Below are positions 5,457 through 5,579 of a stretch of 7,336 bases of DNA, in pieces. The stretch covers positions 1 to 7,336 of IMG/VR virus record IMGVR_UViG_2700989509_000019. One strand, written 5' to 3'. The position numbers and the translations under genes are program-made. The notes below the pieces were generated by a model. The model was given only the letters and a program-made list of their open reading frames with translations. It did not search any database and was not told the DNA's origin. Position 1 is the stretch's first letter, and every line of letters starts with the position of its first letter. Source of the stretch: a virus (Duplodnaviria > Heunggongvirae > Uroviricota > Caudoviricetes).

Positions 5457-5579
5457 GATCTGGAGATCGCAACGGAGGAAGAAACCTCATTGCTGGAAGC
5501 CTGGAAAAAGTATCGGGTGTTGCTAAACCGTGTGGACACTTCCGTAGCACCAGATATCGAGTGGCTTATTCAACCATAA
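5457..5579 (+). pseudogene. tfa: 3'-terminal remnant (about 40 codons) of a tail fibre assembly gene (tfa), equivalent to a tfaX-type pseudogene
   Basis: Translation [40 protein letters not shown] matches the conserved Tfa C-terminus as I recall it (..[22 protein letters not shown]..). There is no start codon. The frame is open only back to a TAA at 5418-5420, and the residues before 5457 are AT-rich and not Tfa-like. It forms a local GC-richer block within AT-rich DNA. Confidence 0.7.

Follow-up and report, generated by a model that had tools for sequence, protein, structure and literature searches.

A truncated tail fibre assembly gene upstream of appY as the probable right seam of an espK-carrying tail-fibre/effector module

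The stretch of caudoviricete DNA analysed here, 7,336 nucleotides from IMG/VR record IMGVR_UViG_2700989509_000019 (positions 1 to 7,336, hereafter the window), contains upstream of appY a dead 3′ stub of a tail fibre assembly gene (tfa), located at 5454-5579, which is a pseudogene scar and a gene fragment rather than a member protein of the family. The stub probably represents the right seam of a swapped-in tail-fibre/effector module, and the three-step account of origin, spread and arrival that is laid out below is likewise considered probable. A preliminary description of the same sequence had taken the remnant for the right edge of an inserted cargo, and this is borne out, the cargo being the espK effector cassette. 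In itself this is an ordinary prophage recombination scar that had been interpreted correctly; modestly new are the fossil attachment (att) site junction at its left edge and the spread of this junction. The features of the window, with the strand where one applies and the basis of each assignment in parentheses, are the following.

57-905, plus strand: 3′ end of J, the tail tip gene (Pfam Ig_GpJ_C, E=3e-39; Phage_Tail_Tip, E=1e-22)
938-1597, plus strand: lom, Ail/Lom outer-membrane protein (Pfam Ail_Lom, E=1e-50)
1656-2975, plus strand: stf, side tail fibre gene (Pfam phage_tail_N, E=7e-70; Collagen, E=5e-17; Phage_fiber_C, E=4e-36)
2977-3246, plus strand: separate 89-aa ORF with Phage_fiber_C (Pfam, E=5e-36)
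3363-3638, minus strand: 91-aa hypothetical gene that travels with espK (ORF; the same 276-nt gene lies beside espK in loci L001, L004 and L005)
3701-5062, minus strand: espK, type III secretion effector, cargo (ORF; near-identical RefSeq proteins named "type III secretion system effector EspK")
5234-5444: fossil P arm (right prophage arm) of a potB/potC-type att site (identity to potB-abutting prophage ends)
5445-5453: truncated att core, CCTTC-TTCA (core defined from O157 attL, O157 attR and the empty K-12 potB)
5454-5579, plus strand: tfa 3′ remnant, pseudogene (Pfam, megablast and SNP comparison)
5454-5565, plus strand: 112-nt block common to most E. coli tfa alleles, the right homology arm (other tfa alleles match up to 5562-5568)
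5566-5579, plus strand: DLP12/appY-type C-terminal codons LIQP and stop (specific to tfa alleles preceding appY)
5580-6123: AT-rich spacer, ~20-29% GC, leading to appY (sequence comparison with K-12)
6124-6873, plus strand: appY, AraC-family activator, phage-borne cargo (Pfam HTH_18; RefSeq annotation)

The 3′ end of J belongs to the left homology region of the tail-fibre/effector module. The order J-lom-stf-fiberC-hyp-espK, together with the occurrence of the block at the potB, ompW-cluster, dusA, yecD and pphA-side loci, is that of an exchangeable effector locus, and the index of the assembly collection lists the exact EspK protein for 1,742 blocks. The Stf protein contains collagen-like GXY repeats, and the 89-aa ORF directly after stf duplicates the Phage_fiber_C domain with which Stf ends (each at ~E=1e-36); its counterparts in homologous loci are labelled "phage tail fiber C-terminal domain-containing protein".

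The translation of 5457-5576 (40 aa) matches Pfam PF02413 (Caudo_TAP) with E=1.1e-17 and 64.8 bits (cut-off 22.1), the match spanning profile positions 91-130 of 131 only. At the nucleotide level, 5454-5750 is 99.0% identical (megablast, E=4e-148) to the 3′ end and following spacer of the intact 576-nt tfa of strain CFIAFB20190172, in which the gene order at the same chromosomal place is J-lom-stf-tfa-appY-ompT-envY; within the remnant, the two alleles differ at two sites, 5465 and 5525, both synonymous. What survives in the window (plus strand) corresponds to tfa nucleotides 451-576, that is, the 3′ 126 nt comprising 41 codons and the TAA stop at 5577-5579. A full-length Caudo_TAP gene, of ~190 aa with the N-terminal domain and a start codon, was not found there, the homologous part amounting to 41 codons; the intact Tfa relatives have 191-194 aa and contain Caudo_TAP_N. 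The preliminary description had recognized a tfa 3′ remnant with its native in-frame stop and without a start, and both the Caudo_TAP match and the identity to the intact allele agree with it. It had also placed an abrupt onset of tfa similarity at DLEIAT; the edge is indeed sharp, but it lies one codon earlier than 5457, at G5454 (GTA, Val). The two observations that would have spoken against this assignment were not made, as the similarity to tfa is significant and no upstream in-frame start makes the segment part of a longer intact gene.

The reading frame of the remnant opens solely at TTG 5442, which gives a 45-aa ORF as compared with 191 aa in the intact protein; there is no ATG, and no sigma-70-like promoter or terminator was found at the remnant. 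In other genomes, the equivalent stretch carries the RefSeq label "tail fiber assembly protein, incomplete, missing N-terminus". The stub has neither a start codon nor a promoter signal, and it has no function of its own. A functional stub would have to encode a 45-aa peptide (TTG 5442-5579) or be an RNA of the candidate sRNA family IS009, and two observations could be quoted in its favor, namely that the frame is intact, unlike that of K-12 tfaX with its TGA, and that Rfam IS009 (RF02111) matches 5374-5545 with E=3e-16. However, the IS009 score is 77.4 bits, below the gathering threshold of 117, good alignment is confined to the 3′ half of the model, and the family is itself tfa coding sequence, with K-12 tfaD scoring 228 bits. 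Furthermore, annotators call this stretch a pseudogene, and both an IS insertion and a nonsense codon are tolerated there in relatives. Given the sub-threshold score and the lack of an ATG and of a promoter-like site or terminator, both the small-ORF and the sRNA readings were rejected and are considered extremely improbable. Elsewhere too, the hits of IS009, which is catalogued as an RNA gene, fall on tfa coding sequence (L002 4847-5045 and 5889-6092), tfaX scoring 110, so that IS009 matches in prophage regions probably reflect tfa homology rather than RNA.

To the left of 5454, tfa similarity is absent from the window, and the sequence is that of the right end of a prophage. Positions 5300-5451 are 99.3% identical to the right end of the espK-carrying O157:H7 prophage abutting potB, and Stx1a prophages, likewise next to potB, share 95.9% identity with 5234-5451 at their right end. 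Comparison of O157 attL (potC side), O157 attR (potB side) and the empty K-12 site defines a full att core of 12 bp, CCTT(C/T)TTATTCA, inside the potB 3′ end. In the window, this core is represented by CCTTC-TTCA, which lacks 3 nt (TTA, TAT or ATT), and the junction reads ...CTATTTCTGTTG CCTTC-TTCA followed by GTAGATCTGG..., i.e., the P arm, the core minus 3 nt, and tfa from nucleotide 451, with tfa homology starting at the first base past the att core. The window thus resembles a true potB attR in its P arm, which is homologous up to the core at 95.9-99.3% identity, but in place of an intact 12-bp core followed by potB it has a damaged core followed by tfa. Judging by these sequence comparisons, 5234-5453 is the fossil P arm and core of a potB-type att site and not a working site. 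The 4-5 nt (C)TTCA at the junction can be assigned to either parent, and cmscan favors an alignment in which CTTCA belongs to tfa and a 7-nt gap opens inside the gene; a 3-nt deletion in the core is the simpler reading.

An intact attP-like site of the same type (the P arm, CCTTCTTATTCA, then TAAGGCGGGACAC...) is present in strain JB2 upstream of a potB-type integrase, and its P arm can be aligned with window positions 5290-5444. A different tfa remnant, 261 nt long, lies ~250 nt upstream of this attP-like site and integrase (L011 6001-7536), and some phages with an integrase of this family therefore have tfa as their final gene ahead of attP. The O157:H7 prophage lies within the potB 3′ end (L004 5126-5989 compared with L006 2618-3445), and the annotated O157 potB ends in phage P-arm DNA, at L004 5126, ~21 nt past the att core, so that the last PotB codons are phage-supplied. 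Annotated lengths of the gene are 864 nt (O157) and 828 nt (K-12); since the two annotations apparently start at different codons, this gap in length does not measure the change at the C-terminus. At 5565-5572, eight nucleotides (CTTATTCA) agree exactly with the right part of the att core. This is the best core match in the 576-nt tfa, and it coincides with the point where the DLP12/appY-type allele (...EW LIQP*) departs from the others (...EW PEEP...); it may be due to chance or to history.

The junction was traced with a 171-nt probe (window 5390-5560), scored as present at a coverage of at least 80%, in 5,426 complete E. coli genomes. It was detected in 151 of these, always behind espK, and in none of the 151 was it followed by appY-type downstream sequence; likewise, neither 5300-5750 nor the whole window was covered to 80% or more in any of the 5,426 genomes. 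Among species-representative genomes, there was no match to the exact 85-mer or to the gapped junction pattern, and IMG/VR yielded one contig, of the type found in strain 10205. All junction-bearing loci read CCTTCTTCAGTAGA, with the identical 3-nt core deletion, and the twelve junction loci that were fetched, without exception, read CCTTCTTCAGTAGATC. Recurrence of the same breakpoint across strains, which the preliminary description had singled out for checking, was accordingly found, and the junction is not unique in origin to appY, being common to espK prophages at other loci. The sequence downstream of the stub falls into at least five contexts besides appY, as listed below together with the appY cases.

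Strain 10205 and the IMG/VR contig: a terminator-like hairpin, the 3′ 60 nt of an apparent tRNA-Ser(UGA), and an integrase-xis-exo early region
CAU16175: dinI-int-dusA
L015, L017 and L021: dinI, then yecD/aspS
L018: pphA side
L012, L014 and L020: K-12-type tfaD 3′ end, then ybcY
L016: appY, arranged as in the window
L013: appY; the stub is interrupted by an IS element

Locus L016 (GCA_000703225.1), whose gene arrangement is that of the window, was found by an exact-EspK look-up in the assembly collection, where flanks of 6-10 kb can be retrieved. It is 99.4% identical to window 1526-7336 and comes from E. coli, since its nfrA-to-appY flank is 99.3% identical to that of K-12. A single assembly, GCA_974493455.1 (L017, L018 and L019), has three prophages with an identical 453-aa EspK, two of them with the tfa junction and one with a true attR at potB. 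The arrangement of hairpin, apparent tRNA-Ser(UGA) and integrase in the 10205 type (L001 6340-6440, L034 2780-2860) looks like an unrecombined attP between two prophages.

The stubs themselves are mosaic. All those that bear the junction are identical over the first 31-53 nt and then continue as the local downstream allele, with the C-terminus reading PEEPDTM*, PEEPRSSE* or PTNPVRE* in contexts other than that of appY. Beyond ~5565, sequences from different contexts are unrelated, whereas the left junction is the same down to the 3-nt deletion, and therefore the points of exchange must lie inside the 112-nt block at 5454-5565. The junction-bearing stubs have G5465, whereas the alleles of the DLP12 locus (CFIAFB20190172 tfa, K-12 tfaD and tfaX) have A at this position. 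For the window, the crossover can tentatively be placed between 5466 and 5524 (or up to 5533, if only the G/T site 5534 is trusted); this interval is tentative because its left marker consists of the single site G5465, and the general inference does not depend on it. Movement of the espK cassette by homologous recombination, with the right crossover in the 112-nt tfa block, is largely demonstrated by these data. The suggestion in the preliminary description that the conserved tfa 3′ block serves as a recombination anchor fits well with one left junction being combined with many downstream contexts and with mosaic alleles. The right edge of the conserved block, 5565/5566, forms a second mosaic boundary, at which very AT-rich DNA begins.

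In the account proposed here, the origin would be an ancestral prophage in which the right end of a potB/potC-integrating lambdoid phage, comprising the espK locus, the P arm and the att core, was joined to tfa nucleotide 451. The likeliest cause would be the action of a phage integrase on a pseudo-attachment site within tfa, with the loss of three core bases. Either the phage would have inserted into a resident prophage, or a tandem array of prophages like that of JB2 would have undergone an intramolecular deletion, and the junction would have arisen once. The unit J-lom-stf-fiberC-espK-fossil att-tfa′ would then have been copied by homologous recombination among lambdoid prophages with different integrases, the conserved tail genes providing the left arm and the conserved tfa 3′ block the right one. 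In the window, this unit would have replaced the tail-fibre region of a DLP12-type prophage at the argU/appY locus, while the resident alleles of appY, the spacer and the remaining part of the stub would have been kept.

Lambda-family integrases recombine at secondary (pseudo-att) sites, and the window junction would resemble such events in its position at the core edge and in a target partly similar to attB, while differing in the 3-nt deletion in the core. The left junction is not a product of homologous exchange and abuts the fossil att core, from which we infer a role for an integrase. The break coincides with the edge of the core, where true attR sites switch to potB. In the register set by the junction, the tfa site agrees with the 21-nt O157 attB at 11/21 positions, a score that is tied best, being reached at three sites among 556 registers; agreement with the K-12 attB is 10/21 and with attP 7/21, so the similarity is weak. 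It is tentatively suggested, as a possibility rather than a probability, that integrase-catalysed use of a tfa pseudo-att site turned the effector locus into a homology-bracketed cassette that could move into prophages with any integrase.

The fusion could also have been an illegitimate deletion or joining without an integrase, with an endpoint that fell at the att core by coincidence and with later spread by homologous recombination. Two other classes of truncation upstream of appY (K-12, ~40 nt upstream, and RS571, at 5469) have no relationship to att, the core in the window is imperfect (minus 3 nt), the 4-5 nt (C)TTCA are common to both parents, and the resemblance of the tfa site to an att site is weak, all of which would suit such an event. 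On the other hand, phage homology stops 0-4 nt from the core edge in a 218-nt arm, where a random endpoint would rarely fall, and the tfa register at the junction is tied best of the 556 against attB. The two other truncation classes show that this kind of event takes place here, and an illegitimate fusion is regarded as rather unlikely, though less so than the other alternatives that were weighed.

The reciprocal junction (...CAGGATGCT + core + TAAGGCGGGACAC), queried as tfa(251-450)+P′ arm, was found in 0/5,426 genomes at a coverage of at least 80%; it is the attL-type partner that prophage-in-prophage integration would leave at the other end of an inserted phage. A two-piece match in JB2 was considered as a reciprocal junction and rejected, because there the tfa remnant lies upstream of an intact attP-like site, which is a different arrangement. 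A junction with an intact TTATTCA core (GCCTTCTTATTCAGTAGATC) was found neither in the fetched junction loci nor in species-representative genomes or IMG/VR. Both negative results, like the weak similarity to attB and the damaged core, weigh against an integrase. The absence of the reciprocal product fits the intramolecular deletion mentioned above, since such a deletion leaves none in the chromosome. It counts against a nested insertion in situ, in which a potB-type espK phage would have integrated into the tfa of the DLP12-type prophage at this very place and all other copies would be derived from it. Such an event would agree with the fact that only two synonymous differences separate the stub from the CFIAFB20190172 allele, with the position of the junction at the att core, and with documented cases of prophage-in-prophage integration (PMC8112680). 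Nevertheless, G5465 matches the junction copies elsewhere and not the alleles of the DLP12 locus, and none of the 151 junction-bearing complete genomes has the appY context. In addition, two degraded relatives have a single prophage with the espK module between fimZ and appY-ompT, and no second integrase is visible in them. Nested insertion at this locus thus seems decidedly unlikely, and the arrival of a ready-made unit by homologous exchange is preferred.

Exchangeable effector loci (EELs) of lambdoid prophages in EHEC and EPEC are a concept cited in PMC8112680. The window is similar to them in that espK lies at the end of a lambda-like prophage past the tail-fibre genes and is common to prophages at different integration sites, and dissimilar in that a fossil att arm and a tfa stub come after the cassette, which is located inside a DLP12-type prophage upstream of appY; none of the 5,426 complete E. 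coli genomes has this combination. Nakamura et al. (2021) described phages that integrate into effector-locus regions of other prophages via captured chromosomal attB copies (PMC8112680). The common element is an att-related sequence beside an effector locus within a prophage, and mosaics and clusters result; however, the sites of that study are chromosome-derived attB copies (yecE, ykgJ/ecpE and ompW) that are still usable, whereas in the window the relic is a fusion of tfa to phage DNA, namely a P arm with a damaged core, and has neither a potB-derived flank nor a reciprocal junction. No literature linking espK with tfa remnants, or describing a P arm and damaged core fused to tfa, was found in the searchable library.

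Tail-fibre modules are reportedly exchanged through conserved stf/tfa segments, as is said to have been described by Haggard-Ljungquist in 1992 and Sandmeier in 1994. The window conforms to this pattern in the use of the tfa 3′ end as a homology arm and in that at least four upstream modules are joined to the same appY-proximal tfa end, but its unit carries an effector locus and a fossil att site and not just receptor-binding parts. Although inert alone, the stub marks, at nucleotide resolution, the entry of the espK locus into a DLP12-type prophage beside appY, and it indicates that 112 nt of conserved tfa sequence suffice as the right recombination arm for such transfers. The fusion of the fossil att arm to tfa suggests a testable hypothesis for the first conversion of a terminal effector locus into a portable cassette flanked by homology; if it is true, a pseudo-att event in tfa would provide one concrete way of making effector loci "exchangeable". 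The junction sequence CCTTCTTCAGTAGATCTGG could be used as a typing marker for the espK cassette.

On the appY side, identity between the window and K-12 is 97.7-99% over 5454-5750 and 5454-7336, the value for 5454-7336 being 99.1%. In K-12, the spacer between tfaX and appY was reported to be a "promoter island" from which transcription is divergent (PMC4469952). The preliminary description had likened the window to the tfaX-appY arrangement of K-12 DLP12, and the likeness holds for a tfa remnant followed by an AT-rich spacer and appY-ompT-envY at the same locus, with the LIQP* C-terminus in both, but not for the breakpoint or the upstream neighbor. Alignment to the K-12 tfa genes, which had been proposed in that description, places the breakpoint of the window at 5454, whereas homology in K-12 tfaX starts ~31-43 nt further 5′; K-12 moreover has ybcY upstream and a TGA nonsense codon, where the window has espK and the att arm. 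From the different breakpoint, the ybcY neighbor and the TGA, it follows that K-12 tfaX is a separate and independent scar, older than that of the window.

At least four states have been found upstream of appY: intact tfa, which is present there in only 13/5,426 genomes, the K-12 class, the window class, and a class broken at 5469 behind a different tail-fibre module (RS571, L024, L025, L027 and L029). Different modules have thus repeatedly been installed behind the appY-proximal end of tfa, which serves as a recurrent seam. The right end of the complete 49.7-kb genome of phage PhiR68_2 (L023, PV340576.1, 1-7044) has the order stf-tfa-pin-ynaE-ybcY-tfaX′-appY-ompT; appY and ompT are thus carried by phages as mobile cargo, and the K-12-type scar has existed long enough to be transported in this way. 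A fifth, divergent form of tfa upstream of appY is seen in L030. The sequence to which this locus belongs, CP125919.1 (L030 and L031), contains two copies of appY-ompT with identical AppY, one of them at the DLP12 locus, and the second with a divergent tfa remnant. Downstream of this second copy are an integrase gene, a gene of the formate/nitrite transporter family, mlaA and a fadL-like gene.
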